Positions 24,429-61,441 are shown, numbered from the stretch's first letter. The stretch: DNA of 64,000 nt from an uncultured Bacteroidota bacterium (GCA_963703215.1 OY969800.1:3522581-3586580), one strand, 5' to 3'. Notes: a model not told the origin generated them from the sequence alone. Translations and numbers: made by a program.

Positions 24429-24431
24429 TTT

Positions 24432-41016: not shown

Positions 41017-41150
41017 CTCTAACGTTTGGTGGAAAGAGTTGTTGCGCTGGCCCGCCTTGAGAGCTACATAGCGTCGAGTCATCGAGCGAAAGCAATGAAG
41101 CGACCACCTTGAATATACTATGTGGAGCATCCCTCGGCCTCTTGTCATAC
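41017..41150 (-). repeat. attC-like site 1 (degenerate)
   Basis: + strand CTCTAAC...TGAAGCG...GAGCAT...GTCATAC. Confidence 0.75.
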
Positions 41151-42149
41151 GCAGCAGCCGCTGTTCCAGAATATCAAGTGCCAGCGATTTGATTCGTCAT
41201 CTTCCTCTGACCAGCGGGCAACCAAATCAGAGCCCGCCCTGCTTAACGATATTCTATGAGCGAGCGAGTCGAAGTAAGTGGTGGGATAGCAACGAAGAGC
41301 CGTCATCAGATAGATTTGTGCCATTGCACGATCATTGCGGTCACCTCGATGAAGAAGTCTCTCGAAAAGAGCAATTGATTCAGGTCTATTATACTGGACA
41401 AGGGCTTCAATCAGATTACACAATGTCATGTCGCTTAGAGACTTGCCGACGAAAATGCTATCAACGGAAGCTTCCAACAACGGAAAGAAGACTGCTGCAG
41501 GGCACTCCCTCATAGATGTGATAGCATAATATGGATAATAGAGTCTTCCACCAGGAGGTATAGGTCGTTGCCAATGAAACTGCTTCACTTGGGAAGCAAT
41601 GAAGGATTCATCGGAATCCTTGCGAAATCGTGCTAAGGCAACCAGAGCAGCAGGGACTAGCGGATTCTCAGCTAGCTGACGAATGTGTCCGTGTAGTCCT
41701 TCATCTGGAGTAAGATGGAACAGATAATATTCAAGGAATTCGGTGCCAACAAATACACATAGTGGAGCTTCATCTCCCATGTCAAAGTGCATGATACGCG
41801 CTTCCGCAGTATCACGTAAGTGTTCCAACAACGCATTGAAAGCCTCTGGAGTTTGTGAGCGGCTCAAGGCTAGCAGACTGTAATACCTAACAATCGGGCT
41901 CCTATGATTGGCGAGTACCTGTAGCTCAGGTACAGTGGCACTGTCTGCAAGTCGCTCAAATCTCCCGAAAAGCTCCGACTTTTTTTGATGAGGCATCATG
42001 CCGATAAGTGGCCCCTCCGCATGGTCAGAACTCGCAAGCCAATCGGCAAGTGATAATAGGCTTGGCCTAACGGAGGGTGACTTGCTGCAGCCAATGAAGA
42101 CGAGAATCAATATCAATGATAATGAAAAAGGATTGATCCTACTTAACAT
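41145..42149 (-). CDS. Cassette gene: lipoprotein with HEAT-like repeats
   Basis: Lipobox FIGC; stop codon lies in the attC R'' box. Confidence 0.7.
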   Translation of the reverse strand: MLSRINPFSLSLILILVFIGCSKSPSVRPSLLSLADWLASSDHAEGPLIGMMPHQKKSELFGRFERLADSATVPELQVLANHRSPIVRYYSLLALSRSQTPEAFNALLEHLRDTAEARIMHFDMGDEAPLCVFVGTEFLEYYLFHLTPDEGLHGHIRQLAENPLVPAALVALARFRKDSDESFIASQVKQFHWQRPIPPGGRLYYPYYAITSMRECPAAVFFPLLEASVDSIFVGKSLSDMTLCNLIEALVQYNRPESIALFERLLHRGDRNDRAMAQIYLMTALRCYPTTYFDSLAHRISLSRAGSDLVARWSEEDDESNRWHLIFWNSGCCV

Positions 42150-42204
42150 GTAGATACCGACCTCACAGAAGAAATCTATTTAATAATTCCTAAGCGGCTG
42201 TTGC

Positions 42205-42318
42205 GTATAACGTGTGCCGGAATCCCGCCGTGCCGCGTTCCTTCTCTATGTAATAACCGCGGCATGGAGCGAGAACGACATATGAAAATGTCGAGCGTCG
42301 TGATTCGTGCTGTTAGGG
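42205..42318 (-). repeat. attC-like site 2
   Basis: GTATAAC...TGGAGCG...GAGCGT...GTTAGGG. Confidence 0.82.
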
Positions 42319-42362
42319 GCAGGCACGCATTCATGTTAACACTCAAATAATTTGGTCTTGTA

Positions 42363-42779
42363 TTATTTGTCAATTTGGTTTATCTGGTGCCTGCTGGTAC
42401 CATTTCGTGCATTGGTCTTCCCGAAACTGTGTATCAACACTCCGCCTCCGAAACCAATCGCTGCAATGACAAAAGAGAACACGGCGAGTTTCAGAATAGA
42501 AGCGCAGGTATTTGGATGCAAGGTATCAGGCAAACTAAAAATATGCTTGACAACATGTGCAAGCGGTAAGAATAACCATACCAAAATCGCCGCGATCCAG
42601 CCCCGCCCACCCCAGAGAATTCCAGAAGTGACAGTGGTACCAAGCAATAAGATAACAATTACGAATGGGCTAACCTCACCCCCGAATGCAAAATTATCCA
42701 CAGCGGAAACAGCAACTCCAATTGCAAGTCCGACAGCAATTAAAACAGTGCGACTTATCGCAGAAGCGTTTGAACTCAT
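42363..42779 (-). CDS. Cassette gene: 4-TM membrane protein
   Basis: GAGGAGG RBS, hydrophobic helices. Confidence 0.75.
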   Translation of the reverse strand: MSSNASAISRTVLIAVGLAIGVAVSAVDNFAFGGEVSPFVIVILLLGTTVTSGILWGGRGWIAAILVWLFLPLAHVVKHIFSLPDTLHPNTCASILKLAVFSFVIAAIGFGGGVLIHSFGKTNARNGTSRHQINQIDK

Positions 42780-42848
42780 GTCTATTATCCTCCTCTTACT
42801 CTTTCGTGATTATACGCTACTCTTCTATTATGCATAGCACGTGCTTTC

Positions 42849-42965
42849 GCCTAACGTCTGCGCGAATCATGTTCGTGCCGCACTCCTTCTTGACATAATG
42901 TGTGCGGCGTGGAGCGAGAACCATGATATACAATAATCGAGCGTCGTTGATACCCGTTGTTATGC
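42849..42965 (-). repeat. attC-like site 3
   Basis: GCCTAAC...TGGAGCG...GAGCGT...GTTATGC. Confidence 0.85.
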
Positions 42966-42975
42966 GCGGTGGCTT

Positions 42976-43553
42976 TCATTGAGTTCTTTCAAGTTTTACG
43001 TAACCAATATATACTCTCCAATTCACGTTTATGGATTCGTATTTACCGGTCGTGAATTCCACTGCGATAGTATCTCCTGGCTCTGCAGAGATTGAATCCG
43101 CCAATGTTATAAGAGTCCAGCCACTTGAATTGCTAAAATTCATCTTGGGATTGATAAATGAACCTTCTTTCCAAAGCCCCATCACAATAGTGCCCGTGAA
43201 ACCGCTGATGCTATTTTGCCATACAGTGAGTTTGTAGACTCCAACAATAGAGTCTTCCGGGATGTAAGTTATGGCATAAGGGGCCGGTTCGGGAATTCGA
43301 GGGGGTTCCCCGGAAGTAACTCAAGTGAAAATGGTCCATCATTGGGAGGCGCTATCGAGACCACCGATGGATATGGGTCACCACCGACAACCCATCCCGA
43401 TAGGGATGGCTTACCATCCACCTGAAAGTTGGGGTTCCCAATTAAATTCGTAATGTTGGTGCTGGGGACAATTGGGTTGTGAGCGCACGAGTATATTGAC
43501 AGCGATAGCACCAACACTATGGCGACTACAACATACTTATATTTGAGTAACAT
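42976..43553 (-). CDS. Cassette gene: lipoprotein, beta-sandwich-like (frameshift about 43300)
   Basis: IYSC lipobox; NLIGNPNFQ...LSGW; adding one C in the C-run joins ORFs 43269-43553 and 42976-43185. Confidence 0.6.
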
Positions 43554-43581
43554 GATTATCGTCTTTCATAAAAGCCATTGC

Positions 43582-43715
43582 GCATAACGTCCACCAAAAA
43601 GAAGTCGTTGCTTTCGCCCGCTATAAAAGTCGCGTAGCGTCGAGTCATCGGGCGAAAGCAATGAAGCGACCACGATATATACAAATATGGAGCGTCTTCT
43701 TTTTGGTTGTTAGCC
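43582..43715 (-). repeat. attC-like site 4
   Basis: GCATAAC GTCCA CCAAAAAGAAG...CTTCTTTTTGG TT GTTAGCC. Confidence 0.9.
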
Positions 43716-43736
43716 GTTCGTGCACGGCGGCCGGCT

Positions 43737-44153
43737 TTACTCCACTGGCTCACCAGCAAGCTCCAAAGAAAATGCCTTCAGAGAGTCAACCCATTGAAGG
43801 TCGGCAGGGTCGGAACTAGTGCCATCTTTTTTCGAGAGCCAGGTCTCGAATGAAGCTGGTCCCGTTAAGTTAATTCTCCATCCGTCATAGCCTTCGGTCG
43901 ATGCACCCGCCTGCAAACCCTTGGGGTTGTGGAATCCAGTGCTGTCAATTCGATACAGTGTATCGCCATTGTTCACCACGAAAAATTCCGAGTAAAGGCT
44001 ATCCGCAATCTCCACACCATAAAGCGTTCCGACGAGGGAACCATTGCTTGTAGTCAAGTTATGAATGACTTCAAGGTGGGGGGCCCGAGAGGTAGGCGTC
44101 TTAGAGCAAGAAGCGAGGAAGACTAGTGATAAGATGATGGACAATTTAAACAT
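43737..44153 (-). CDS. Cassette gene: hypothetical lipoprotein
   Basis: LASC lipobox, GAGG RBS. Confidence 0.75.
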   Translation of the reverse strand: MFKLSIILSLVFLASCSKTPTSRAPHLEVIHNLTTSNGSLVGTLYGVEIADSLYSEFFVVNNGDTLYRIDSTGFHNPKGLQAGASTEGYDGWRINLTGPASFETWLSKKDGTSSDPADLQWVDSLKAFSLELAGEPVE

Positions 44154-44200
44154 GTCAGTTTACCTCAGCTTTAATATGGATTGTCGCCGCCGTGCATGAC

Positions 44201-44313
44201 GTATAACGTACTGCCGGACAAAGTCGTGGCACGCTCCTTCTTCATATAATTTGCGTGCCATGAAGCGACCACGACATATATAATGTGGAGCGTCTTCTTC
44301 TCGCATGTTATAG
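44201..44313 (-). repeat. attC-like site 5
   Basis: GTATAAC...TGAAGCG...GAGCGT...GTTATAG. Confidence 0.85.
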
Positions 44314-45000
44314 GACGTTGGTTTGCGATTCGTTATGATCCTGCATATTGGGTTGTTCATTTAGTAAAGGCCTCTTTGCAAGCCTAACCACATCATCAAG
44401 CATTCGATAGTAGGACACGAAGATGTAAACTATGGGGACATACGCAGCGACGCTAAGAACATAGAAAAGAACATTGTCGGGAATGTGGAATCCTGTTTTA
44501 GTATCAAAACTCACGGCCAAATTAAATGCAACTCTGAGATGAAACACTTGCGAGCAAATTAGGATTGCGAGAGTTGGGACCACATAGCAGAATCCACTAA
44601 GAATCATTGAGTATCTCCAGCTCTTGGTGGATTTCACCATATGGTAAGATTCAGCCACTTCCATCATTGCCCAACAAAATAGAAACGCGGAGACCAGTGC
44701 ACCATAAAAAGTCAGGTCACTACTGTCTGCACAGAGAGAAATCATGGTATCAACGAGCCCGCTCAAGGACAATATCGATCGGAACACAATCATTGTCCAA
44801 ATGAAAATGACGGACCAAAGAAGTGATTTACTCTTTCTTGTCTCGGGGCAATCGTAGAGAAAGGCTACACTGCATAATAGAAGTGCCCCTCCAAAATCAG
44901 ATGACTTATATTCGACGTCGCCCACGCTGAAGCGGAAAAAGCACAAGATGATCCCGACAGCTAAAAACCTTCGCGACCAGAGAAGAGCGCCCTTATCCAT
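44308..45000 (-). CDS. Cassette gene: multi-pass membrane protein
   Basis: About six hydrophobic segments; stop TAA lies in the R'' box. Confidence 0.7.
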   Translation of the reverse strand: MDKGALLWSRRFLAVGIILCFFRFSVGDVEYKSSDFGGALLLCSVAFLYDCPETRKSKSLLWSVIFIWTMIVFRSILSLSGLVDTMISLCADSSDLTFYGALVSAFLFCWAMMEVAESYHMVKSTKSWRYSMILSGFCYVVPTLAILICSQVFHLRVAFNLAVSFDTKTGFHIPDNVLFYVLSVAAYVPIVYIFVSYYRMLDDVVRLAKRPLLNEQPNMQDHNESQTNVL

Positions 45001-45096
45001 TGATTGATGACGTCAGCTTTGGACTAGAAATAGCAGAATATGACATTCCTAATATTCCTCCATTTAAATTGTATTGGAGAAAGCAAACCAATGTTC

Positions 45097-45230
45097 CTAT
45101 AACGTGACCCGCAAAGAAGTCGTGCTCTTGCCCGCTATGAAAAATCGCGGAGCGTCCAGATGGCGGGCAAGAGCATGAAGCGAGTTCTATCATATACAAT
45201 AACCGAGCGTCTTTTTTGCGGTTGTTAGGC
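45097..45230 (-). repeat. attC-like site 6
   Basis: CTATAAC GTGAC CCGCAAAGAAG...CTTTTTTGCGG TT GTTAGGC. Confidence 0.9.
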
Positions 45231-45252
45231 GACGTGCCATCTTGTTAGTTAG

Positions 45253-45807
45253 CTAAGACTTCAAGTTCTGGAATGTCACATTGGTACAGAAATAGTTATA
45301 TTCTTTTTCACGGAACCATACTGTTTCTAATTTTTTGGAATCCTTGACCTCCTTTTGGATAAGCCATTTTGCAAATGAAGGAAGCTGTTTCCTCTTGTAC
45401 CGAGCGGCGGCAACAATGAAATCTAGATTTTCGTTGTGTATGAAGAAGCGATTAGGAATGCACTCCAAATCGCTTGCAATTATGCCATACCGCAGCCAAG
45501 GATAGATTGCTTTGTGTTTGCCAGCTTTTGCAGAATAGGTAATGACATCATGGGTTGTAAGCTTGGTTTTAAACTCGATTACGACCCTTGGGAGGAAGCG
45601 GGAAGCAGATAATTCCAAGATGCAAATGTCAGTTTGGAAAGCTGAGATGCCTCTTTTGGGATTCTTCGTGTCGCTAACTGAAACATCTAATGACGTGTTC
45701 AGCGTCAATTCGTAGAGAAGGTTATGTCCGCGCTCCACCTTCAGAGAATCAGCGAGAGCATTGCTCGCTGATTTTTCAAACAGAGTCACAAAGGCAGATT
45801 CTTTCAT
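45253..45807 (-). CDS. Cassette gene: PD-(D/E)xK nuclease-fold protein
   Basis: FQTDICI...PRVVIEFKTK...HDVITYSAKA. Confidence 0.65.
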   Translation of the reverse strand: MKESAFVTLFEKSASNALADSLKVERGHNLLYELTLNTSLDVSVSDTKNPKRGISAFQTDICILELSASRFLPRVVIEFKTKLTTHDVITYSAKAGKHKAIYPWLRYGIIASDLECIPNRFFIHNENLDFIVAAARYKRKQLPSFAKWLIQKEVKDSKKLETVWFREKEYNYFCTNVTFQNLKS

Positions 45808-45821
45808 ATTTGGACTGACAG

Positions 45822-46595
45822 CTAGTTACCGTTGATGGAGTTACCAACAATCTCGATGGCTTCAACGTCGGCGTTGAAAGCATTCTTTGAAATTGCTGTG
45901 CCAATAAAATAACCAGCACACGTGATTATTGATTGTGGCTCAAGACGAGAAGAACTGCCATTGTACAGGAATTCAACCGTAGAAACACCCGCTAGGGAGT
46001 TTGAGCTTTCTACTGCAATCATAACGTCGGTCCAATTGCCGAGCGAAGGCGACACACTCTGAACAGTATAAACGTCGCCAGTGGCGCGGACGAGTTGACC
46101 AATGTAGGCGTATGGATTTTTCGATATTTCGGATACTGGCACCCTCCTAGCATTGTGCCATGTTGACGATGGGGTTGAATCCTGAATTTTACGCATAGCC
46201 ACGGCGAGATTGCCATTTGATTGAATTGAGGCATCAGAAGTATTGAATGATTCTTGGCGTTGGTAGGACTGCGAGGTATAACTATTGTTGTTCGTTTGAA
46301 AAAGAGAAGACAAATTTATGACTCCATATTTGTTGAGGAGATATATCACGACAGCAATGACAAGTAGAGCTTCTCCCACTTCCTTGAATCTGAAAGACGA
46401 TGATTGTTGCGGTGACTTTGGTAAGTTGTCCTCATCAGTAACGTGTTCACGCTTAGCGGAGCTGTTGGTCTCATCGGATTCTACAGATGGCGAAGGTTGA
46501 GGTACAAGGTCTGTGCGACTCTGAAGGGCAGCCCCACAGTTTATGCAGAACTTGAAGTCGTCTGAATTAAATTTGCCGCATGATGTACAGTACAT
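45822..46595 (-). CDS. Cassette gene: zinc-ribbon, single-TM protein with OB-fold-like ectodomain
   Basis: MYCTSCG...FCINCG, TM helix, NPYAYIGQLVRATG.V. Confidence 0.75.
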   Translation of the reverse strand: MYCTSCGKFNSDDFKFCINCGAALQSRTDLVPQPSPSVESDETNSSAKREHVTDEDNLPKSPQQSSSFRFKEVGEALLVIAVVIYLLNKYGVINLSSLFQTNNNSYTSQSYQRQESFNTSDASIQSNGNLAVAMRKIQDSTPSSTWHNARRVPVSEISKNPYAYIGQLVRATGDVYTVQSVSPSLGNWTDVMIAVESSNSLAGVSTVEFLYNGSSSRLEPQSIITCAGYFIGTAISKNAFNADVEAIEIVGNSINGN

Positions 46596-46623
46596 TCATC
46601 CTCCTATTTCTTGATGGCATGAC

Positions 46624-46740
46624 GCCTAACGTCTGCCAGAAAGAAGTCGCGCCGCGCATCCATGTTATTCCTATGAGCGCGGCGTGAAGCGAACTCGATA
46701 TTATATCTCATGATGAGCGTCTTCTTTCTGGCTGTTAGGC
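46624..46740 (-). repeat. attC-like site 7
   Basis: GCCTAAC GTCTG CCAGAAAGAAG...CTTCTTTCTGG CT GTTAGGC. Confidence 0.9.
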
Positions 46741-47259
46741 GCAGCGTGGCCAGTACTTAAGCACCACTGCCCACATCACAAGAACGATGAAGGTGAGCAA
46801 GAATCTCATCTTGCGAACCGCACCCTTGCCGGTGAGCAGTCGAACGAGAAAGTTCCTGTCAGGCCTCTTCTCAGGCAACGGATCGGTAATCACTACCAAT
46901 TTCTCAATCTCAAGGAGCCACTCGAGCGATTTATCTTGAAATGCTCGATGATTTTCGGCAATCACCAACCAAATGATCATTATCGCCGATGATACGAGTG
47001 CAAGAGTCAGGAGATGAACAAACTGTGGTTCCTTCAAAGCAGTTAGAGCAGCGAAACCAGCAAGGGAAAGCGGTATCATGATTTGAGCAGTTGACCAGAT
47101 GCGATTGTTGTCAGAGAGAAATCGTTGAGAATAACTGGAGTAAAAAGCCTTCAACCAGTCATCAGCGATGGCAGGATTGTTCTTGCGGAAATCCGTAAGT
47201 TGATCACGAAGAGACCGCCTTGGTTGCTGAGTGACAGGTTGGGGATTATTTAAGTTCAT
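46735..47259 (-). CDS. Cassette gene: 3-TM membrane protein
   Basis: GAGGAGG RBS; TM hairpin, W...LLEIEK helix, C-terminal TM; stop in R'' box. Confidence 0.75.
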   Translation of the reverse strand: MNLNNPQPVTQQPRRSLRDQLTDFRKNNPAIADDWLKAFYSSYSQRFLSDNNRIWSTAQIMIPLSLAGFAALTALKEPQFVHLLTLALVSSAIMIIWLVIAENHRAFQDKSLEWLLEIEKLVVITDPLPEKRPDRNFLVRLLTGKGAVRKMRFLLTFIVLVMWAVVLKYWPRCA

Positions 47260-47301
47260 TGTTGCCTCCTCTTTCTATGGGAGATTCGATTGCCACGTTG
47301 C

Positions 47302-47439
47302 GCCTAACGTCCTGCCGCAAACAAGTCGTCCCGATTGTCGCATATAAATATTTGCGAAGCATCCATGATACGCGGCAATCGGGATGAAGCGAGCTCCATC
47401 ATATAAAATAACCGAGCGTCTTTTTTGCGGTTGTTAGTT
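47302..47439 (-). repeat. attC-like site 8
   Basis: GCCTAAC...CCGCAAACAAG...CTTTTTTGCGG TT GTTAGTT. Confidence 0.9.
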
Positions 47440-47455
47440 GCAGTTGCCCGCCGTT

Positions 47456-48733
47456 TCATTTGAGCAATAAAAGTTTCTTGGTGTCATGGTACGTGCCAGC
47501 GTCAAGCCTGTAGAAGTATATTCCACTGGGAAGGCTGCCTGCGTTAAACGTAATGGAATGATTGCCTGCACTCTGGCGTTCGTTAACCAGAGTTTCAACT
47601 CTTCTCCCCAATACATCGAATACCATTAACGACACAAAAACGTTCGTTGTCAATTGGTAACCTATGATGGTTGATGGGTTAAATGGGTTAGGGAAATTCT
47701 GAAGCAAGGCAAATCTCTTCGGCACTCTATTGTCCGCTTGTTTTACAGACGTAGTCATTTCAGACAAAGTCCTTTTCCACACTCCATGTCCCCAGGTACC
47801 TGCAAATAGAAACGAGTCCTTAATGGCGAGAGAGTAGACCGCTGAATCTAAGGATCCTGTATTGACGGCGCTCCAGGTCGTGTCATGGTCAGTGGACAGA
47901 AAGACTCCTCCCCAAGTGCCTGCAAAGAGTCTGTCGCCGCTAGTCACAAGAGACATGACGTTCCCTCCAGCGAACGTGAGACCAGAACTACTGTTGAACC
48001 AATTTGTGCCGTTGTTTGTCGTGAAGAAAACGCCACCGCCATCGGTACCAGCAAATAGAGTGCCTCCTATAAAGGTCAGCGCTTGAACAACTGTTGTTCC
48101 TAAGCCAATCCAGTGAACAGATTCAATCAGTCCATTACTTACAGCAGTCCAACTTGTTCCATTATTGATCGAAAGAAAGACTCCTTTATCCGTCCCTGCA
48201 AAAAGCTCTGTATCTCTGATGGCAAGACACTCGACATACGCATCTTCCATGCCAGTATTTGCAGCTGTCCAGCTATCGCCGTTGTTGGTGGAAAGAAAAA
48301 CCCCTTGACCATAGATACCCGCAAAGATATTGGTTCCACTGAAAGCAAAAGTTGTGAGGTCGTAGTTTGTCAAGCCGCTGTCTATTGATGTCCAACTGGA
48401 ACCGTTATCGGTGGAACGAAAGACTCCTCCATCTGCATGCGCAAAAAGAACCGTGTCTTTGATGGCCAAAACGTTGGCAACATTGCCAGACGGACTTATG
48501 CGGATAGTGTCCCAACTATTGCCGTTGTCGCTGGACAAAAATGTTCCCCCTCCGATATAGTAGTGATCTACAGTAGTTGGCCCATCACCGACAACGAGAT
48601 TCTTACCGAGCACGGCAATGCAATAGATGTGACCGTCGGAAAGTCCGTTGGTTTGTATCCATTGTGCATTTAAAGAACTTATAGCGCTGAAGAAGGTAAT
48701 CACCAACGCTAAAACCCGAAATAGATTCTTCAT
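47456..48733 (-). CDS. Cassette gene: BNR/Asp-box beta-propeller with T9SS type A C-terminal sorting domain
   Basis: Start MKNLF after AGGAG; repeats GVF.S.DNG.SW; LLQNFPNPFNPST...SGIYFYRL...TKKLLLLK. Confidence 0.9.
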   Translation of the reverse strand: MKNLFRVLALVITFFSAISSLNAQWIQTNGLSDGHIYCIAVLGKNLVVGDGPTTVDHYYIGGGTFLSSDNGNSWDTIRISPSGNVANVLAIKDTVLFAHADGGVFRSTDNGSSWTSIDSGLTNYDLTTFAFSGTNIFAGIYGQGVFLSTNNGDSWTAANTGMEDAYVECLAIRDTELFAGTDKGVFLSINNGTSWTAVSNGLIESVHWIGLGTTVVQALTFIGGTLFAGTDGGGVFFTTNNGTNWFNSSSGLTFAGGNVMSLVTSGDRLFAGTWGGVFLSTDHDTTWSAVNTGSLDSAVYSLAIKDSFLFAGTWGHGVWKRTLSEMTTSVKQADNRVPKRFALLQNFPNPFNPSTIIGYQLTTNVFVSLMVFDVLGRRVETLVNERQSAGNHSITFNAGSLPSGIYFYRLDAGTYHDTKKLLLLK

Positions 48734-48770
48734 CAGGTTCTCCTTTCGTGTAGCAGTAAAGGGCAATTGC

Positions 48771-48904
48771 AACTAACGTCCACCGCAAAAAAGTTGTCCC
48801 GCTTGCCGCTAAAAATATTGCATGGCATCCACGATGCGGCGAAGCGGGATGAAGCGAGTTCTATCATATACAATAATCGAGCGTCTTTTTTGCGGTTGTT
48901 AGGC
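48771..48904 (-). repeat. attC-like site 9
   Basis: AACTAAC GTCCA CCGCAAAAAAG...CTTTTTTGCGG TT GTTAGGC. Confidence 0.9.
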
Positions 48905-48941
48905 GAAGTTGTTTTGTAACCGTAATTCACGTCTACAATGT

Positions 48942-49422: not shown

Positions 49423-49537
49423 GCCTAACGTCCTGCCGGACAAAGTCGTGCCGCGCTCCTTCTTGACATAATGCGCGCGGCATGAAGCGAGTTCGATAGT
49501 ATATAATAGTCGAGCGTCATGATTGCCGTTGTTATAC
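49423..49537 (-). repeat. attC-like site 10
   Basis: GCCTAAC...TGAAGCG...GAGCGT...GTTATAC. Confidence 0.85.
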
Positions 49538-50379: not shown

Positions 50380-50514
50380 GTATAACGTGACCCGCAAAAA
50401 AGTCCGTCCCGCTTCGACGCTATAAATGTGCGAAGCTCGATGAGAGCGGCGAAGCGGGATGAAGCGAGCACCATGATACAGAATAATCGAGCATCTTTTT
50501 TGCGGTTGTTATCT
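50380..50514 (-). repeat. attC-like site 11
   Basis: GTATAAC GTGAC CCGCAAAAAAG...CTTTTTTGCGG TT GTTATCT. Confidence 0.9.
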
Positions 50515-53148: not shown

Positions 53149-53282
53149 AGATAACGTCCTGCGGCAAAAAGTCGTTGCTTTCGCTCGCTATAAAAGTTGC
53201 GAAGCATCGAGTCATCGAGCGAAAGCAATGAAGCGACCACGATGTATAAAAATGCGGAGCGTCTTTTTGCCGCTTGTTATGC
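53149..53282 (-). repeat. attC-like site 12
   Basis: AGATAAC GTCCT GCGGCAAAAAG...CTTTTTGCCGC TT GTTATGC. Confidence 0.9.
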
Positions 53283-53358
53283 GCAGGCAAAGTTTCTTGT
53301 CATTTGCTTTTTTGGCCCGACATATCGAATTTGAATGCGATACTTGCAAGGTTAGCAA

Positions 53359-53829: not shown

Positions 53830-53878
53830 ACTTATTCTCCTTTTTTGATTTGTGAAATAATATTGATTCAACTAATAC

Positions 53879-54508: not shown

Positions 54509-54613
54509 TGCTAAGTCAGGGACTTAATTTTCCTTTTTTGGACAGAAAACTCTTATCGGCAAAAATCATTGCTTCTTCAAATAAACATATTGCCATATCA
54601 GAACTTTGCTTGC

Positions 54614-54729
54614 GCATAACGTTTGCGAGAAAAGAGTCGCGGCGCACTCCTGGCAGCCTATAATGTGTGCGCCGTGAAGCGAGCACCATCATATATAATA
54701 ATCGAGCGTCTCTTTTCTCGTTGTTATCT
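54614..54729 (-). repeat. attC-like site 13
   Basis: GCATAAC GTTTG CGAGAAAAGAG...CTCTTTTCTCG TT GTTATCT. Confidence 0.9.
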
Positions 54730-54771
54730 GTTCGTTGGCTTGCGTGAAGCGTTGGTAGCCTGGTAAGCATA

Positions 54772-55278
54772 TCAGCCATTCACCAGAAATGCTAGATTTA
54801 AATTTACATTTACTTTCTTGTTGTTCTCGTGCACCGTCGCATGAACTCTATACACCCCCAGCGGGTCATTGTGCTCAAGGGCAATGTCGATCTTAGACCA
54901 CGAAAGTTCCATCACAGGCGCGGGCTCGTCCTTCCAGATCGTGAGCCCATCAAAGTGAGCATACATAGACCCATCGGGTTTGGTCACGGTCAGATCGCAT
55001 GTTAAGTTAGCGTTGCCCTTGTCATCCTTACCGTCCGTGGCAAAAATTATAATCGGGAGCGCAGTCTGCCCGCGTTTGAATGTGTCTTGAGTACTGATGT
55101 GGGGAGTCTCGGGCAATGCCCACTTCTGATAAAAGGTCGTGTCGTCAGTCAGCAAGAAAATCACAGAAAAGCCATCCTTATTGTATTCGTCCTTCTGAAT
55201 CAAGGAATCAGGAGGCGCGGCAAACACTTTTCCAAAGCCGCAGACAAACATTAAGAAAAATAGAGAAGCTTTGTTCAT
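54772..55278 (-). CDS. Cassette gene: secreted hypothetical protein
   Basis: Signal peptide ending VFA; Ig-like C-terminus (DPLGVYRV). Confidence 0.75.
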   Translation of the reverse strand: MNKASLFFLMFVCGFGKVFAAPPDSLIQKDEYNKDGFSVIFLLTDDTTFYQKWALPETPHISTQDTFKRGQTALPIIIFATDGKDDKGNANLTCDLTVTKPDGSMYAHFDGLTIWKDEPAPVMELSWSKIDIALEHNDPLGVYRVHATVHENNKKVNVNLNLAFLVNG

Positions 55279-55353
55279 CCTTCAACCTTTCTTTATCGAT
55301 AATATTTCATGGTAGCATACTCATGTCATCAGAGCGGCTCGCAAGCCAATGAC

Positions 55354-55488
55354 AGATAACGTCCTGCAAGAAAAAGTCGTTGCTCTCGCCCGCCACAAAT
55401 GTTGCGAAGCATCCAGACAACGGGCGAGAGCAATGAAGCGACCACCTTGCATATATAATGTGGAGCATCTTTTTCTTGCTTGTTAAGC
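55354..55488 (-). repeat. attC-like site 14
   Basis: AGATAAC GTCCT GCAAGAAAAAG...CTTTTTCTTGC TT GTTAAGC. Confidence 0.9.
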
Positions 55489-55545
55489 GCAGTTGTTTTG
55501 CATCTTAAAGTTGACCACTTCTGCGAACGAGGACTTGCTCGCCTT

Positions 55546-56160
55546 TTAGAACCACCGCTTCCTTTTTTTGTAAACCACATCGTCGCCCTTACCATGGTCG
55601 TCCTTCAAGTCTTTTCCAACACTGTAAAGCAAAAACGAATCAGGTGCAACAGGTCTATAAATTATTGTGAGTTCTGGTATTCCCACTCCTACATATGTAT
55701 GGACTGGAGAGTGTTGGTCAAAATCGTTCATAGTGAAATCACCAACAGAATTAGAATCTCCAATCTTCATGGGTTTCACCCACCCAACATCACCACGATT
55801 CTTCACAAATAGAGTGTCCCTCGTCCTGTTAATCGAATCAGCGTAAATGTAAACGTCTTCGATGTGAACGTATTTCCTGATAGAATCAATAAAATATTTT
55901 CCACTAATTTGAGGGTAGTGGCCATAATCGGAGTGGTATTTATGTAACCCTGTCGCTGTTGAATCTAGAAGTTCGGAGATGATTTTCGCATCCAGTTCAT
56001 TATACAAATCGGGACCATGAATGAAACTCAGTTGCATTTGCCTGAGTTGCCAATATGCAAATGAAATGAGCAAACCGACAATAGTAATGCCAAGAACAAT
56101 TTGCAACCACCGTTTCTGTTTGATAACGCGTGGAATGAATCGCTCAGGGATTGGAATCAT
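55546..56160 (-). CDS. Putative immunity protein 1: single TM + GspG-pseudopilin-like domain
   Basis: Overlaps the toxin stop by 17 nt; YHSDYGHYP and FLLYSVGKD..DD.GKGDDV motifs. Confidence 0.6.
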   Translation of the reverse strand: MIPIPERFIPRVIKQKRWLQIVLGITIVGLLISFAYWQLRQMQLSFIHGPDLYNELDAKIISELLDSTATGLHKYHSDYGHYPQISGKYFIDSIRKYVHIEDVYIYADSINRTRDTLFVKNRGDVGWVKPMKIGDSNSVGDFTMNDFDQHSPVHTYVGVGIPELTIIYRPVAPDSFLLYSVGKDLKDDHGKGDDVVYKKRKRWF

Positions 56161-56899
56161 TTCCTGACTCTGGTATTAGTGGTACAGTATTTATTGGGAC
56201 ACCCACAGGATTTATAATCCCTTCATTCATTAGCAATCCAACCGCTTGGTAAATAATCTCGCCAGCTATTGAGGAACCACTCAACGAAATTGTCCTCTCT
56301 GAATTTGTGACGTAGCCAGAATTTTGAAGAGCATTAGAGAGCTGCTCTGGTGACACCGCTCCATTTGGTTGATTGAAAGGAATTCCGCCAGCCTTCAACG
56401 CGTTCATTGTGGTTGTTACGCATGAATTAGTTTCCGCGTTATAAGTGCCATCCTGTCGGCTATCGAGAACTTTCTGAACTTTTGTTTCGTCAACATTAAC
56501 CGTTTGCTCTATGACAGACCGAACCTGCTTTTCATTTGCAACATACTTATCATATGAAACCAAGTGCCATTTCCCGTCACCCTCAAAGGAATACACTTTC
56601 CCATCTCTCCTGATAGCCGTATGGCCAGCAAGACTGTTAGCAGTAGGACTACCATTAGTTGTGTTCTGAATCGTAGGGCCAGAAGTAATCACCGATGTGG
56701 TATCACCGTTAGGGTCAATAAACCTTATCGGATTATCCATCCCATAGTTGTATGGCGACAATCCTGGATACTTTCGTTGCATCGGGTCAGGTGTCGTCCA
56801 CCTCGCGCACCATGAATCAAAATATCTGTGCGCGTAGGTCGGTTGAACAAATGTGAATGCCAAAAGAAGGAGTGGGAAAAAGTTTCTAATCTTTTTCAT
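56144..56899 (-). CDS. Signal-peptide mini-RHS toxin 1 with permuted papain-like C-terminal domain
   Basis: Sec signal, then RYFDSWCARWTTPDP...SPYNYGMDNPIRFIDPNG (RHS core), then GHTAI...YNAETNSC. Confidence 0.8.
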   Translation of the reverse strand: MKKIRNFFPLLLLAFTFVQPTYAHRYFDSWCARWTTPDPMQRKYPGLSPYNYGMDNPIRFIDPNGDTTSVITSGPTIQNTTNGSPTANSLAGHTAIRRDGKVYSFEGDGKWHLVSYDKYVANEKQVRSVIEQTVNVDETKVQKVLDSRQDGTYNAETNSCVTTTMNALKAGGIPFNQPNGAVSPEQLSNALQNSGYVTNSERTISLSGSSIAGEIIYQAVGLLMNEGIINPVGVPINTVPLIPESGNDSNP

Positions 56900-56919
56900 G
56901 AGAATGCCCTTTCTGCGAT

Positions 56920-58236
56920 TTAGTATTGTCCAGTTAGTTTAAACTTCTCGATTGATTCTGCCTGCTTGATGAAAAACTTCTCAGGGAACTTCAGCACGAT
57001 TCCTAATTGCTTGGCTTTCGTCTTCAATTTATGGCCAAGGTCTATGAGTTCCAATATCTGCTTCCCGTAGCTGTCATTTATGTATGCAATCTCTCCCATC
57101 ATCTCAGCCTCATCATTCTGACGCTGAACGTTTGGATTTTGGTTTACTGGAAACTGGTTGTAAGGATTATTTGGCTTCTCAAACGGATTCGGAGCTTGAG
57201 GACTCATATTTCTTGTAAATTGATCGAACATCGTGGTTATTGGTTGACGAGGTTGTGTTGGGTCGGAGGTCCCTTGTTGAATAAACTGGTCGGGGTGTAT
57301 TATTTGCATTGGCTCTGGAGTAGGATTCACTTCCATTTGTGATGATGGTTGTCGCGTTGGATACGTGTCGACAATGTAGCTTCGCCTTACGTCCTGAATC
57401 CTTTCGTACCTTGTGCTGTCAAGCTCTATCGCCTTTCTTCTGCAAAGCTCACCAAGGTTCCACCATGCGCTTGAGTTGGTAGAATCGTAGGAAAGCGAAA
57501 GCCGTGTGTAGTAAATAGCTTTATCCAAATCCTTTCTCTTTTCTAAAAAGTATCTTGCGTTCACTCCGAGAAGCGAGGCGACGTATTCTTTATTTGTGAG
57601 AACTCTTTCATAAACTCCATTCTTGATGGCTCTCTTTGGTTCACCAGCATCGGTGGCGTACCTCCATGTGGGAATATATCCACCGCCACATGTTGCCTCA
57701 ACGTTGTTTAGCTTGAATCCTTTCTGCATGTAACGGCAGTAGAAATGCTTTGCGCTTCTAACAGGCTTAATGGGCCAACCGAGTCGTTGCGCCAAGACAA
57801 GATGGAGCATCGACATCGTGACACATGAGCCGAGTTTCGTTGCGATGTAGCCGTTTAAGAATTGGTCACTGGTACTATCACCTTCAAGGTCATTGAGGTT
57901 ATAAGTGAAGGTAATTGAATCGTTCCACCGCCCAGGCCTGTAAAGATAGGTATTCATCAAGCCAATGCGGAAAACTGGGTCGGCTTTGCCTTGGTCAAGG
58001 TAACGAATCTGGTCAGCCATGTAGTTAATGACGTAATCAAAGGACTCGACTTTTAGATTTGGATATGCATCTTTTGCAAGAGCGAGGCAAGCAATCCCAA
58101 GGTTTATGCTGTCATCGGGCATAGCGAGGATCTGTTCAATCGTCTGCCCTGTGTACTTCGATTGTGGTTTCGTCGTGTCAGGAATCAAGAAACAGAGAAT
58201 AACCACTGCCGATAATAAGATTTCAAGTCGCTTCAT
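56920..58236 (-). CDS. Secreted SirB1/transglutaminase-like protein with TPR and Pro/Gln-rich region, copy 1
   Basis: FLNGYIATKLGSCVTMSMLHLVLAQRLGWPI...AKHFYCRY...NVEAT; TPR (KAIYY...AWWNLG). Confidence 0.75.
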   Translation of the reverse strand: MKRLEILLSAVVILCFLIPDTTKPQSKYTGQTIEQILAMPDDSINLGIACLALAKDAYPNLKVESFDYVINYMADQIRYLDQGKADPVFRIGLMNTYLYRPGRWNDSITFTYNLNDLEGDSTSDQFLNGYIATKLGSCVTMSMLHLVLAQRLGWPIKPVRSAKHFYCRYMQKGFKLNNVEATCGGGYIPTWRYATDAGEPKRAIKNGVYERVLTNKEYVASLLGVNARYFLEKRKDLDKAIYYTRLSLSYDSTNSSAWWNLGELCRRKAIELDSTRYERIQDVRRSYIVDTYPTRQPSSQMEVNPTPEPMQIIHPDQFIQQGTSDPTQPRQPITTMFDQFTRNMSPQAPNPFEKPNNPYNQFPVNQNPNVQRQNDEAEMMGEIAYINDSYGKQILELIDLGHKLKTKAKQLGIVLKFPEKFFIKQAESIEKFKLTGQY

Positions 58237-58245
58237 GCTCGCCTC

Positions 58246-58274
58246 ACTTTACTGATGATTTCATGTTTACGCAA
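58246..58274 (-). promoter_or_regulatory. Candidate cassette-internal promoter
   Basis: Minus strand TTGCGT-N17-TAAAGT, conserved in the next cassette. Confidence 0.4.
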
Positions 58275-58308
58275 TACCCCGTTTGAGGTATTTTCGCAAA
58301 ACAATTGC

Positions 58309-58445
58309 GCTTAACGTCCACCGCAAAAAAGTCGTCCCGATTGCCGCACATAAATATTTGCGCAGCATCCATGATACGCGGCAATCGGGATGAAGCGAAT
58401 TCAATATATGTTCCATAATGAGCGTCTTTTTTGCGGTTGTTAGCT
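58309..58445 (-). repeat. attC-like site 15
   Basis: GCTTAAC GTCCA CCGCAAAAAAG...CTTTTTTGCGG TT GTTAGCT. Confidence 0.9.
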
Positions 58446-58511
58446 GCTGTTGGTTTGCGCTTCGTTAGCCTCCTGATATGCCATGGTCAATCACCTTACT
58501 CTATAATTGGC

Positions 58512-59129
58512 CTATTCTTTCAAAAATCTTTCTTTTTCCGTCTGAAAAAATTTAACCTCTCGAAACCTCCCTGTGATGCTGGTCTCGTAAAGTACCTCAG
58601 AATGTTTTAGAGACTCATTTATCGGACTGATATTATTAATTGCGCAATCCATTTGTTCAATAGCTTTGGATAAGCTTCCAAACTTCTTGTAGGCACCAGC
58701 TAATACATATCTATTAAGAACCCAATCTGGAGATGAAAAAACAGATTGTTCGAGCAAATCAATCTGTTCCATGAGATTTATTTTCTCTAAATCATCAAGG
58801 GTTTCGGCTAGTAACATAAAAACTGCGCCTTTTTGTTTGGAAACATTATTCAATATCATGGATCGCAACAATTTCTCAGCTTGCAGAAGTGAACTTTTAT
58901 CCATTGAATAATGAATGTGACAGAAACAGAGCCAAAGTTTGGCAATTTCATATTCTGGATTCAACGCAAGGATTCTATTCAATAGAGCAATTGCTTTATC
59001 TTCTTTATGAAATGGCTCGATGTAGAAACTTGATAACTCAAGCATATTACTGACATCACCTTTGTCTGTCGAGGTTTTACGCTCAAGGGCTACCAGTTTT
59101 TCTATGTCTTCTTTTGTTTCGTGTCCCAT
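58512..59129 (-). CDS. Putative immunity protein 2 (TPR-like, cytoplasmic)
   Basis: Immediately downstream of toxin 2; AT-rich; helical TPR-like repeats; no signal peptide. Confidence 0.6.
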   Translation of the reverse strand: MGHETKEDIEKLVALERKTSTDKGDVSNMLELSSFYIEPFHKEDKAIALLNRILALNPEYEIAKLWLCFCHIHYSMDKSSLLQAEKLLRSMILNNVSKQKGAVFMLLAETLDDLEKINLMEQIDLLEQSVFSSPDWVLNRYVLAGAYKKFGSLSKAIEQMDCAINNISPINESLKHSEVLYETSITGRFREVKFFQTEKERFLKE

Positions 59130-59142
59130 GATTTAAAGGTTA

Positions 59143-59893
59143 TTATTGGTTTGGTACGAAAACAGTTCCCAGCTTTACGGTTCGGTCACTGTCAATAAAA
59201 CCTCGTATGGCGACAGTTGTTCCATCAATGTCTTTTGTTACTGCAAAAGTCCCAGGTGAAGGATTGTCCTCTTGGACAGACTCTTATCACGGACTCTAAG
59301 AAATTTTCGTTTCCGCCGAGCCTTTCTATCAGGGGTTGAAGCATATGTTCGTCCTGCAGTATGTGGGCAAGCTTAGCCTCCTTCATAGCATATTCAAGTG
59401 ATTTTGCTAAAACTTCTTCCTCACCAGCTGGCCCGCCAGGGATATTTACGATTCCCATCGTGAGAGTCGGTCTCGGTGCGAACCATCTCGCTCCGTTTGC
59501 GGTCGGTACGATTTCACGGTTAGGCTGCATATGGTGGAAATGCCCCATGAACGGATCAATCACGGTGTATTGAGCAAGAGTTAAAATTGTGAAATTTCCA
59601 GAAACATAATTAGAGTTTTGCTGTCCCCAAACAATCATATCTGGCGAGTTATCAATAGGAACTAAATTGTGGTTTTGGTCGTAAGCATATGTCGTATCTC
59701 CGCTTGGGTCGATATTTCTTAATGGGTTACAGAGTCCGTAGTTGTACGGAGACCATGCTGGGTACAGCATTAGATATGGGTCAGGGGTGCACCATTGCGC
59801 ACGCCATGAATCAAAATATCTATGAGCGTAGCTCGGTTGAACAAACGTAAATGCCAAAAGAAGAAGTGAGAAAAAGTAAGTAGTCTTTTTCAT
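59143..59893 (-). CDS. Signal-peptide mini-RHS toxin 2 (apparent +1 frameshift about 59281)
   Basis: Sec signal + RHS core ...NPLRNIDPSG; repaired C-terminus KLAHILQDEHMLQPL...SVQEDNPSPGTFAVTKDIDGTTVAIRGFIDSDRTVKLGTVFVPNQ*. Confidence 0.75.
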
Positions 59894-61177
59894 CGGAATG
59901 CCCTTTCAGTTAGTCAGTATTGTCCTGTTCGTTTGAACTTCTCAATTGATGCTGCTTGCTTGATGAAAAACTCTTTGGGAAACTTCAGCACGATTCCAAG
60001 TTCCTTAGCTTTTGCTTTTAATTTATGTCCAAGGTCTATGAGTTCCAATATTTGCTTTCCGTAGCTGTCGTTTATGTACGCAATCTCTCCCATCATCTCT
60101 GCTTCATCATTCTGCCTTTGAATGTTTGGATTCTGATTAATAGGGAACTGATTGTATGGATTGTTTGGCTTCTCAAGCAGTGATGGAGGTTGCGGAGCTA
60201 TGTTCCTCGTGAACTGGTCGAACATGTCTGTTACTGGAATTCTTGGTTGCGTCGGATCAGGAGGCACCTGTTGGATGAATTGGTCTGGATGTATTATCTG
60301 TGTTGGCTGAGGATTCGGATTCACCTGAACTTGTGGTGATGGCTGTCGCATAAGATAATCGTCAGTTGCGTAGTTCCGCTTCACGTCTTGTATTCTCTCA
60401 TATCTGATACTATCAAGCTCTATCGCTTTCTTCCTACAAAGCTCGCCGAGGTTCCACCACGCACTTGAGTTGGTGGAGTCGTAGGAGAGGGAAAGCCGTG
60501 TGTAGTAAATGGCTCTGTCCAATTCTTTCTTTTTCTCTGCGAAGTACCTTGCATTCACTTCGAGAAGCCCTGCAATGTATTCTTTGTTCGTGAGAACTCT
60601 CTCATAAACTCCATTCTTGATAGCCTTCTTCGGCTCTCCTGCATCGCGCGCGTAACGCCATGTCGGTATCCATCCCCCACCGCAGGTCGCTTCGATATTA
60701 TCGTACTTGAGACCTTTCTTGATGTAACGACAATAGAAATGCTTAGCACTTCTGACAGGTCTGATGGGCCAGCCGAGCCTCTGCACCAAGGCAAGGTGGA
60801 GCATCGACATCGTAATACAAGAACCATGCTTCGTTGCGATATATCCGTTCAGAAATTGGTCGTTGGTGCTGTCGGCGTCGAGGTCATCAAGATTATAAGT
60901 GAATGTGATGGCATCGTTCCACCATCCAGGCCGATATAGGTAGGTATTCATCATGCTAATCCGAACCGTGGGGTCGGTTTTCCCTTCGCAAAGCGGTCGA
61001 ATGTGGTCAGCCATATAGTTGAGACTGTAATCGAAGAAATTTATGTTGAGATTCGGATACGCATCCTTTGCAAGAACGAGACAAGCTATTCCAATATTGA
61101 TGCTGTCCTCTGGCATGGCAAGAATTTGCTCAATGGTTTGTCCTGTGTATTTCGATTGTGGCACGGACTCGTTGGGA
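59429..61177. repeat. Long direct repeat, copy A (pairs with 62252-64000, offset 2823)
   Basis: High identity over the SirB1-like gene and the toxin N-terminal half; ends abruptly at the IPGGP codons. Confidence 0.9.
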
Positions 61178-61230
61178 TTAAAGAAGGACACCACTACAAG
61201 AACCGAAAGCAGGGTATTTAAATGTTTCAT
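59914..61230 (-). CDS. Secreted SirB1/transglutaminase-like protein, copy 2
   Basis: 438 aa; GSCITMS, AKHFY, NIEAT conserved. Confidence 0.75.
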   Translation of the reverse strand: MKHLNTLLSVLVVVSFFNPNESVPQSKYTGQTIEQILAMPEDSINIGIACLVLAKDAYPNLNINFFDYSLNYMADHIRPLCEGKTDPTVRISMMNTYLYRPGWWNDAITFTYNLDDLDADSTNDQFLNGYIATKHGSCITMSMLHLALVQRLGWPIRPVRSAKHFYCRYIKKGLKYDNIEATCGGGWIPTWRYARDAGEPKKAIKNGVYERVLTNKEYIAGLLEVNARYFAEKKKELDRAIYYTRLSLSYDSTNSSAWWNLGELCRKKAIELDSIRYERIQDVKRNYATDDYLMRQPSPQVQVNPNPQPTQIIHPDQFIQQVPPDPTQPRIPVTDMFDQFTRNIAPQPPSLLEKPNNPYNQFPINQNPNIQRQNDEAEMMGEIAYINDSYGKQILELIDLGHKLKAKAKELGIVLKFPKEFFIKQAASIEKFKRTGQY

Positions 61231-61239
61231 GCTCGCCTC

Positions 61240-61268
61240 ACTTTACTGATGATTTCACGTTGACGCAA
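61240..61268 (-). promoter_or_regulatory. Candidate cassette-internal promoter
   Basis: Minus strand TTGCGT-N17-TAAAGT. Confidence 0.4.
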
Positions 61269-61304
61269 TACCTCAATTGGGGTATTTTCGCGCAAACTAA
61301 TTGC

Positions 61305-61441
61305 AGATAACGTCCACCGCAAAAAAGTCGTCACGATTGCCGCATATAAATATTTATGTAGCATCCATGGCACGCAGCAATCGGGATGAAGCGAGTTCCA
61401 TCATATAGAATAACTGAGCGTCTTTTTTGCGGTTGTTAGCT
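61305..61441 (-). repeat. attC-like site 16
   Basis: AGATAAC GTCCA CCGCAAAAAAG...CTTTTTTGCGG TT GTTAGCT. Confidence 0.9.

Follow-up and report, generated by a model that had tools for sequence, protein, structure and literature searches.

Atypical attC-like sites with an asymmetric loop and an unbulged stem in an integron-like cassette array of an uncultured Bacteroidota bacterium, and their probable pairing with a tyrosine recombinase lacking the IntI additional domain

Two features of the integron system, the I2-bearing additional domain of the integron integrase and the extrahelical bases of the attC sites, are held to be defining and essential in the treatments of recombination and of integron detection given by Bouvier (2009), Cury (2016; PMC4889954), an eLife report of 2020 (PMC7790495) and a bioRxiv report (10.1101/2022.02.06.479319). 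In the present work, we describe a family of attC-like sites that departs from this pattern, found in a 64,000-nucleotide stretch of DNA from an uncultured Bacteroidota bacterium (GCA_963703215.1 OY969800.1:3522581-3586580; this whole stretch is hereafter the window, and positions without other attribution are counted from its first letter). Between positions 41020 and 61438, 16 repeats of 107-132 nucleotides (nt), all on the + strand, space cassette open reading frames (ORFs) of the opposite strand. We consider it likely, at a probability of roughly two in three, that what lies here is a distal portion of an integron-like cassette array of the sedentary kind, in a host of the Kryptoniota/Ignavibacteriota lineage, with the repeats as attC-like sites and a tyrosine recombinase devoid of the I2 helix as their likeliest enzyme.

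The canonical attC site, as laid out in the consensus structure and seed alignment of the published model (attC_4, supplement of Cury 2016), consists of an R'' box of 7 nt, a spacer usually of 5 nt, an L'' box formed by 3 base pairs (bp), one unpaired base and 4 bp, a variable part, an L' box of 7 nt, a spacer of 5-6 nt and an R' box of 7 nt. Spacers of five to six bases per arm and extrahelical bases that sit on the arm facing the AAC triplet are likewise described where site structure is treated in Nivina (2016; PMC5027507) and Bouvier (2009). The sites studied here and the canonical ones (viz. class 1 attC sites and the Vibrio cholerae repeats, VCR) are alike in being imperfect palindromes bounded by ...AAC and GTT..., with one site per cassette, co-oriented cassette ORFs, an R'' complementary to the start of its own cassette, a bottom strand that folds better, a variable and sometimes branched distal part, and an attI beside the recombinase gene. 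They differ in that the present family has an internal loop of 4-5 by 1-2 nt, an unbulged stem of 11-12 bp and a conserved lateral branch, and in that the enzyme beside its arrays lacks the additional domain of IntI.

Three further systems resemble this one in particular respects. In the "reverse" integrons of Spirochaetota and in the archaeal integrons, the recombinase is co-directional with the cassettes and attI is located just past the 3' end of intI, as in the loci described below, whereas the integrases of both are reported in the same account to carry the IntI-specific additional domain that is missing here (bioRxiv 10.1101/2022.02.06.479319). Cury (2016; PMC4889954) noted recombinases near attC sites which, like ours, have the PF00589 domain without the IntI domain; four of them fall between IntI and Xer in the tree of that study. 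As presented there, those recombinases had fewer than three attC sites alongside and were judged not to be IntI, whereas the type described here heads multi-cassette arrays with an attI-like site, and at the level of sequence, the related loci are a counter-case to that judgement. Lastly, Xer enzymes, which have no I2 helix, are reported to recombine folded single-stranded DNA during CTXphi integration (PMC3442271). The likeness lies in a Xer-type enzyme without I2 acting on such a substrate; the difference is that a phage genome enters dif by means of the housekeeping Xer pair of the host, with neither a dedicated recombinase nor cassette arrays.

The 16 repeats form a sharply defined family. 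A strict pattern (TAAC, a gap, TGRAGCGA, a gap, GAGCRTC, 12 nt, GTTA) matches 14 of them and finds nothing in 100 dinucleotide-preserving shuffles, and a covariance model built from 15 of the sites, when scanned over the 64 kb, returns its 15 input sites at 97-149 bits, the decayed site 1 at 59.5 bits and, beyond those 16, no match above 17 bits. The first-pass annotation of this DNA had reported 16 repeated sites and proposed that such a model be built; the sites are all present on the + strand and the model recovers every one. All 16 start with TAACGT and 15 end with GTTA, so that the terminal boxes R'' (RYYYAAC) and R' (GTTRRRY) of attC are in place (TAAC 16/16, GTTA 15/16). Internally, TGAAGCGA occurs in 14 sites and TGGAGCGA in 2, while GAGCGTC occurs in 13 and GAGCATC in 3, and two length classes of about 110 nt (the short type) and about 128 nt arise from the length of a GC-rich hairpin. 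Matching of the pattern to genome contigs identified at least 172 further stretches with sites of this family (hereafter the related loci), a set in which the window's own genome is not included.

The arrangement of the sites is that of cassettes. The distal part of the array (41020-64000, - strand) contains 15 complete cassettes and one that is cut at the window end, each comprising its own attC-like site at the low-coordinate end and one to three ORFs on the - strand, and every sizeable ORF between sites (ORF list, Pfam) is on this strand; the recombinase-proximal end of the array should lie past the window's right edge. When the 10 nt following GTTA are set against the reverse-complemented 10 nt that precede the next TAAC, an average of 7.1 of 10 positions agree (15 pairs), compared with 3.9 of 10 for the two flanks of the same site and 3.7 of 10 for other combinations. 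This complementarity of flanks across each ORF is the logic of integron cassettes. Of the 93 inter-site segments in the window and the related loci taken together, 80 have their longest ORF opposite to the pattern strand and 3 have it on that strand, while 10 are ambiguous; the median cassette unit is 839 bp.

These observations also bear on the suggestion that the repeats have no role in recombination and belong to a family of regulatory hairpins or of elements akin to repetitive extragenic palindromes or miniature inverted-repeat transposable elements. The repeats are indeed conserved, structured and intergenic, and they contain an AT-rich segment, as such a family would. This explanation is, however, already disfavoured, and we regard it as very improbable, given the strict single orientation of the repeats, their TAAC and GTTA ends, a flank complementarity that spans each ORF and is never seen within one site, and the recombinase and attI-like site found at the array ends of related loci. 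Additionally, a search of the window against Rfam yielded a single tRNA and no family at gathering score over the repeats.

The fold of the sites accounts for their conserved segments. When the + strand is read from its 5' end, TAACGT is followed by 3-4 further unpaired nt, an arm of 11-12 nt, TCG, the variable GC-rich hairpin and TGAAGCGA or TGGAGCGA, and then by an AT-rich segment of 19-22 nt, GAGCGTC or GAGCATC, the complementary arm, 1-2 nt and GTTA. The consensus fold obtained with RNAalifold supports the stem and hairpin structure. To this we could add the evidence of relatives, for which the best 150 of 173 covariance-model matches in 70 loci were aligned and reduced to 116 distinct sites. 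In this alignment, 93.9% of 3901 pair cells are paired, compared with 70.6% in column shuffles (none of 500 reaches the observed value), and paired cells fall to 50% or less when the partners are slid by 1-3 columns. Changes on both sides were observed for 10 of the 11 stem pairs and for 14 of the 15 hairpin pairs, and columns 8-11 and 337-340 are near-invariant.

The internal loop beside the terminal boxes measures 4 against 1 nt if an invariant G.T next to the R box is counted as a pair and 5 against 2 nt otherwise, and in 113 of the 116 distinct sites, the unpaired nucleotides on the 5' side outnumber those on the 3' side by exactly 3. The stem beyond it has no extrahelical base, because the insert columns within it are occupied in just 1 and 3 of the 116 sites. 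The atypical geometry claimed for the window on first inspection, viz. an asymmetric loop and a stem without a bulge, is therefore real and extends to the relatives. The order of the junction segments described at that stage also holds, and it can now be refined. Beyond the stem, TCG forms pairs with TGA within TGAAGCGA (UA 83 and CG 25 at the first of them, column pair 34-207), and the GC-rich hairpin thus stacks directly on the stem, whereas the remaining segment, consisting of AGCGA, the AT-rich portion and GAGCGT, constitutes a lateral branch that is 31-33 nt long in 93 of the 116 sites. At the base of this branch are a G-C and a C-G pair, an invariant G/A facing A/G and then a covarying pair; the G/A positions may form a tandem G.A. 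In the window, the fold of the + strand is more stable than that of the - strand for 14 of 15 sites (sums of -383.0 and -356.2 kcal/mol).

Examination of all ORFs in the related loci identified a tyrosine recombinase in four contigs (L004, L037, L039 and the truncated L008/L009). The gene always occupies one particular end of the array and points the same way as the cassette ORFs. The truncated copy (L008, 1280-1951; JAMCQL010000035.1) breaks off after the catalytic lysine box, has the first site within 50 bp and is likely a pseudogene. Downstream of the three intact genes, about 60-70 bp past the stop codon, an attI-like motif is present in exact form (AAAAACG, 5 nt, CGTTTTT or CGTTGTT, 6 nt, GTTA), and the 10-16 nt after its GTTA are the reverse complement of the flank that precedes the TAAC of the first site. 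The motif looks like an attI that is joined to a first cassette. From this layout, the top strand is the one in gene sense, and the + strand of the window is the bottom strand, which is how the first-pass annotation had assigned it. The polarity was taken from these loci because a test based on paralogous cassettes, which asked on which side of its ORF a cassette bears the attC, found both readings to be equally parsimonious.

The proteins encoded at L037, L004 and L039 combine PF00589 with the SAM-like N-terminal domain PF13495, and the catalytic residues R-K-H-R-H-Y are invariant in 27 aligned members of the family. Their alignment with VchIntIA (2a3v) is in two pieces, with 26 residues where 2a3v has 68, whereas they align with the archaeal XerA without gaps. 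Against TIGR02249, they score 235.5, 223.1 and 215.0 bits, each in two stretches and below the cutoff of 265; against XerC (174-196 bits) and XerD (176-190 bits), they are below the cutoffs of about 330; and against NF040815, "XerA/integron integrase", they score 225.8, 218.5 and 219.2 bits, of which one is above the cutoff of 220. The profile intI_Cterm, which we rebuilt from the supplement of Cury et al. (2016), matches none of the 4 array-adjacent recombinases. It likewise fails to match any of the 120 close relatives or any of the 149 representatives taken at 50% identity. By contrast, all 3 IntI1 genes are recognized, with scores of about 80 bits, as are 119 of 120 IntI1 relatives, all of the latter being at least 74% identical to IntI1. 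The recombinase family to which the array enzymes belong comprises 4175 clusters at E values up to 1e-30. Hence, by the test that the field itself employs, the array-end recombinase is not IntI: the catalytic and SAM-like domains are present and the additional domain (patch III, I2 helix) is absent. The cataloguing of adjacent recombinases that had been suggested for this family has yielded four related array ends, all of them without this domain.

An independent case is provided by the best plasmid match to the recombinase (47% identity), which is encoded by a 66-kb plasmid of Chryseobacterium sp. SNU WT5 (NZ_CP041688.1; our locus L178), where tblastn finds a single homologue. This recombinase also shows no match to intI_Cterm (0/1). 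It is followed by an attI-like sequence with AAGTTGGGA (GTTGGGA) and then by co-directional small genes, which are linked by a chain of five junctions, in each of which R'' is the complement of the R' that opens its own cassette. The plasmid sites have no sequence motif in common with the window family, and all three site types fold better as bottom strands. In two of the three, the top-strand AAC is followed by 1-2 nt and GTT is preceded by 5 nt (1x5 and 2x5); the third is a perfect hairpin that is present in four copies. The recurrence of asymmetry in two of three site types that are unrelated in sequence favours the loop as a recognition feature. By contrast, the conserved junction motifs, which the first-pass annotation had named alongside the loop in this role, are absent from the plasmid sites and are therefore specific to the family rather than general. 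The four copies of the perfect hairpin (8946-9087, 11041-11182, 13422-13563 and 16491-16632 of the plasmid locus) each comprise 142 nt of GC-rich sequence between ..CCCAAC and GTTA.., and each is preceded by an identical 38-nt palindromic "empty cassette". The plasmid array is interrupted by an IS110 element and a group II intron.

A number of observations weigh against our interpretation, and they are taken up here and below together with the alternatives that they would fit. The foremost of these alternatives is that the repeats are ordinary attC sites of a canonical integron, served by an I2-bearing IntI encoded beyond the window or elsewhere in the genome, with the Xer-like recombinase as a bystander. 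The sites conform to canonical integrons in their R'' and R' boxes, the sizes of their cassettes, the orientation of the ORFs and the logic of the junctions; deletion of the extrahelical bases is reported to leave bottom-strand recombination unreduced at some of the sites covered by Nivina (2016; PMC5027507); and large branched terminal structures are described for VCR sites (PMC2727003). Furthermore, when the family was threaded onto the published attC_4 consensus structure, the bulged L box could be placed at 7 of 7 positions in 43 of 206 family sites (8 of 10 class 1 controls) and at 6 of 7 in another 69 (1 of 10 controls), so that 112 of the 206 sites thread at 6/7 or better. The good canonical fit, with an L box and an extrahelical base, which the first-pass annotation had named as the outcome contrary to its proposal, can thus be obtained by threading for part of the family. 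The unbulged register, however, fits at 7 of 7 positions in 140 of the 206 sites, at spacers of 1/4 or 2/5, and in none of the 10 controls, and the roughly one fifth of the sites that are forced onto the canonical box through slippage in A/T runs are so placed only by opening covarying pairs.

A fold-and-walk comparison gave a similar contrast. Of the 7 class 1 controls, 5 were cleanly delimited; in these, the 3' arm bears two bulges of 1 nt and the spacer loop is near-symmetric, at 5x4 nt or less, whereas the window family shows a loop of (3,0) to (5,2), 11-12 unbroken pairs and then the junction; the poorly delimited controls (estX and aadA2 in this comparison, dfrA12 in the threading) were kept in the counts. 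Instead of a 5-6-nt spacer on each arm, the family has 4-5 against 1-2 nt, with covariation of the loop-adjacent pairs that the canonical model treats as unpaired spacer, and it has no L box with an extrahelical base in the form of 3 bp, bulge and 4 bp. The loop asymmetry, the covariation of these would-be spacer pairs and the poor fit of the bulged L box support the claim of a distinct attC class, as does the absence, from the recombinase next to the arrays of related loci, of the domain with which IntI binds extrahelical bases. These sites are probably such a class, and by analogy with the related loci, they are probably paired with an I2-less integrase.

Another point in favour of an ordinary integron is the presence of intI_Cterm-positive integrases in Ignavibacteria reference genomes (Cury 2016 supplement), where Ignavibacterium album is listed with two In0 elements and Melioribacter roseus with one integron and a single attC. 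A canonical IntI of this kind could act in trans, or the sites of these integrases could have been missed by the standard model; the 0-1 attC detected for each in the same supplement count against the explanation by an ordinary integron. At all four array ends with a visible recombinase, and likewise on the Chryseobacterium plasmid, the recombinase is of the I2-less type and its arrangement does not vary; an attI-like site with a flank matching the first cassette accompanies each of the three intact copies from metagenome-assembled genomes (MAGs) and the plasmid copy; and the plasmid has just the one homologue. Taking these lines of evidence together, we regard the explanation by a canonical integron as unlikely and prefer an attC class that is served by an I2-less recombinase.

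The family is widespread, mostly within one part of the bacterial tree. The matches listed come from about 49 assemblies (by accession prefix), of which 41 have labels within the Bacteroidota/Ignavibacteriota/Kryptoniota/Chlorobi group and the other eight are labelled otherwise; among these matches, the carriers are mostly Ignavibacteriota, Kryptoniota and "Bacteroidetes" MAGs. The host of the window is placed similarly by its histidyl-tRNA synthetase, which is 70-86% identical to its nearest relatives, the named ones being mostly Candidatus Kryptoniota or "Bacteroidetes" MAGs. Comparison of the window with the related loci by blastn yields site-sized matches alone, up to 97.5% identical and never longer than 158 nt, and the intervening cassettes must therefore differ. 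Subtypes of the site are 92-97% identical across species-level genomes (window against L020, L021, L047, L081 and others), and the site types appear to be common to the whole lineage. The attC sequence had no match in plasmid and phage collections, and no earlier description of this site class was found in open-access PubMed Central papers and bioRxiv, a coverage outside which subscription journals fall.

The remaining points against our interpretation concern the window itself and the array ends. Neither an array recombinase (window ORFs, Pfam) nor an attI-like motif is found in the window, and its link to the I2-less enzyme is therefore drawn by analogy with other genomes. About 2 kb of proximal sequence is visible in 35 loci (about 25 contigs, grouped by hand), yet a recombinase is present in only four contigs, with one copy truncated. 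At L025, an attI-like motif with 3 mismatches (3326-3354) lies 1.2 kb past the last site, and no recombinase ORF follows it within the 750 nt present. Five of the 16 window sites have decayed, poorly paired stems. As for the strand, G.T and A.C mismatches in the 11-bp stem number 28 and 31, which is no strand bias, so wobble bias is uninformative as a test; the choice of the + strand as the folding strand rests on the energies, three invariant G.T positions and analogy.

Several of these points would suit a frozen cluster of attC-like sites for which no enzyme is now active and which is kept in the form of terminators or insulators. With 16 sites and 0 integrases, the window does qualify as a CALIN (a cluster of at least 2 attC sites with the integrase absent nearby), although this status may be an effect of the window edge, and many related clusters likewise show no recombinase within 2 kb. 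To a relic one would also ascribe the five stems that are decayed or chimeric. Nine of the 16 window stems are, however, perfect over 11-12 bp, and six distinct arm sequences are found in the window, each with its own exact complement. Moreover, covariation across genomes is strong, the complementarity of the junctions is preserved, and sites that are nearly identical between genomes enclose different cassettes. A frozen relic is accordingly improbable in our view, and the interpretation as part of an integron-like array that has an enzyme of its own remains the preferred one.

The individual sites illustrate both conditions. The claim made on first inspection that the arms covary perfectly is correct for all five arm pairs then quoted, but it does not extend to every site, since in addition to the five decayed stems, two have one mismatch. 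Five of the nine perfect stems have a 4/1 loop and 12 bp, and four have a 5/2 loop and 11 bp. All sites being on the + strand, perfect 12-bp runs are found in site 4 (43585-43712; arms CCAAAAAGAAG/CTTCTTTTTGG, 4/1 loop) and in site 7, of the short type (46627-46737; arms CCAGAAAGAAG/CTTCTTTCTGG); sites 15 (58312-58442) and 16 (61308-61438), which are 89% identical to each other, have stems of 11/11 within 12-bp runs; and site 9 (48774-48901) has the arms CCGCAAAAAAG/CTTTTTTGCGG. The 5/2 loop is present in site 11 (50383-50511; stem 11/11), site 12 (53152-53279; arms GCGGCAAAAAG/CTTTTTGCCGC), the short-type site 13 (54617-54726; arms CGAGAAAAGAG/CTCTTTTCTCG) and site 14 (55357-55485; arms GCAAGAAAAAG/CTTTTTCTTGC). 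Stems of 10/11 are found in site 6 (45100-45227) and site 8 (47305-47436). Site 1 (41020-41147; covariance-model match 41014-41154), the last of the array, has retained its left (R') half, while its right arm and GTTA are degenerate. The other poorly paired sites are all of the short type, viz. site 2 (42208-42315; 8/11 pairs), site 3 (42852-42962; poor pairing and a distance of 13 nt from GAGCGTC to GTTA), site 5 (44204-44310; 5' arm GCCGGACAAAG with a non-matching 3' arm, 7/11) and site 10 (49426-49534; the same 5' arm as site 5, with a 3' arm that pairs at 3/11). Sites 5 and 10 look chimeric or decayed, perhaps through homologous exchange across the conserved core. The arm that they have in common also occurs in the first site of locus L004, where its pairing is perfect.

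On the basis of these results, a mode of action can be proposed. The + strand of the window, as the bottom strand, would fold in the cell as single-stranded DNA, with TAAC and GTTA pairing as an R box that is extended by the flanks of the excised cassette, followed by the small asymmetric loop, in which 4-5 nt on the side of AAC face 1-2 nt, and by the uninterrupted stem of 11-12 bp. The stem would lead into a three-way junction, with the GC-rich hairpin stacked on it and the branch of 31-33 nt emerging from the arm opposite the AAC triplet. The cognate enzyme would most likely be a tyrosine recombinase that is the nearest relative of the integron integrases but has no I2 helix or additional domain. 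Its gene would lie upstream of the cassettes and share their direction, and the attI-like site would follow about 60-100 bp past the stop codon. At the conserved (AC)G|TTA, this enzyme would exchange a single strand of a folded attC with either attI or a second attC site, leaving replication to resolve the product. For XerCD and CTXphi, it is said that one strand is exchanged between a folded single-stranded hairpin and a duplex site and that replication completes the event. The lateral branch emerges from the canonical arm, across from the AAC triplet and at a distance of about one helical turn from the loop, which is roughly the position of the distal extrahelical T in class 1 sites, and it may be a functional stand-in for that base. 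The asymmetry of the loop and the lateral branch would then replace the extrahelical bases as the signal for strand choice.

The broader proposal, on which our judgement is evenly balanced, is that a widespread integron-like lineage exists in Bacteroidota, Ignavibacteriota and Kryptoniota in which a dedicated I2-less recombinase recognizes sites by their asymmetric loop and a stem free of bulges, whether or not a lateral branch is present. If it is correct, the capture of cassettes via folded single-stranded sites would have no need of the I2 innovation, and such elements would represent either a pre-I2 "proto-integron" or a lineage that has lost I2 and re-tuned its sites. Surveys in the manner of IntegronFinder would class them as integrase-less clusters or miss them, and cassette platforms would be undercounted in a large and mostly uncultured part of the bacterial tree. 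A natural system that keeps the junction logic without either of the two features named at the outset would also test other routes to strand choice and hairpin recognition and would inform the order of events in the evolution of IntI from Xer. The Chryseobacterium plasmid offers a cultured starting point.

The cassettes of the window include three paralogous three-gene units (55486-64000, - strand) that are related as direct repeats (D3 and D5) at 83-87% identity. Their ORFs, all on the - strand, are located at 55546-56160, 56144-56899 and 56920-58236 in the first; at 58512-59129, 59225-59893 and 59914-61230 in the second; and at 61482-61922, 61940-62716 and 62737-63987+ in the third, which runs off the window. 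Matches to Transglut_core2 were found in the three largest proteins of these cassettes, each cassette encoding a transglutaminase-like protein of 438 amino acids and two proteins of unknown family, one of which has a weak tetratricopeptide repeat (TPR) match. At about 2.9 kb, these multi-gene cassettes are large for an integron. Another cassette protein (47456-48772, - strand) carries Sortilin/DUF6242 repeats and a type IX secretion sorting domain (Por_Secre_tail).

To the left of the array, the window contains ordinary chromosomal genes (viz. peptidase M1 and a NifB/X-like protein). Its sole trace of a tyrosine recombinase is a C-terminal remnant of 71 residues (8444-8656, + strand). This remnant matches the array-type enzyme at 43% identity across 37 residues, immediately precedes tRNA-Leu(CAA) (8701-8788, + strand) and is probably the relic of an integrated element. 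Within the kdp operon, kdpD (three overlapping ORFs, 13508-16215, - strand) and kdpB (two ORFs, 18075-20196, - strand) appear to be split, which may reflect frameshifts, pseudogenes or assembly indels. At 23334-25430 (+ strand), an N6/N4 DNA methylase is followed by a MTaX1/HNH endonuclease protein, and the two resemble a restriction-modification pair.

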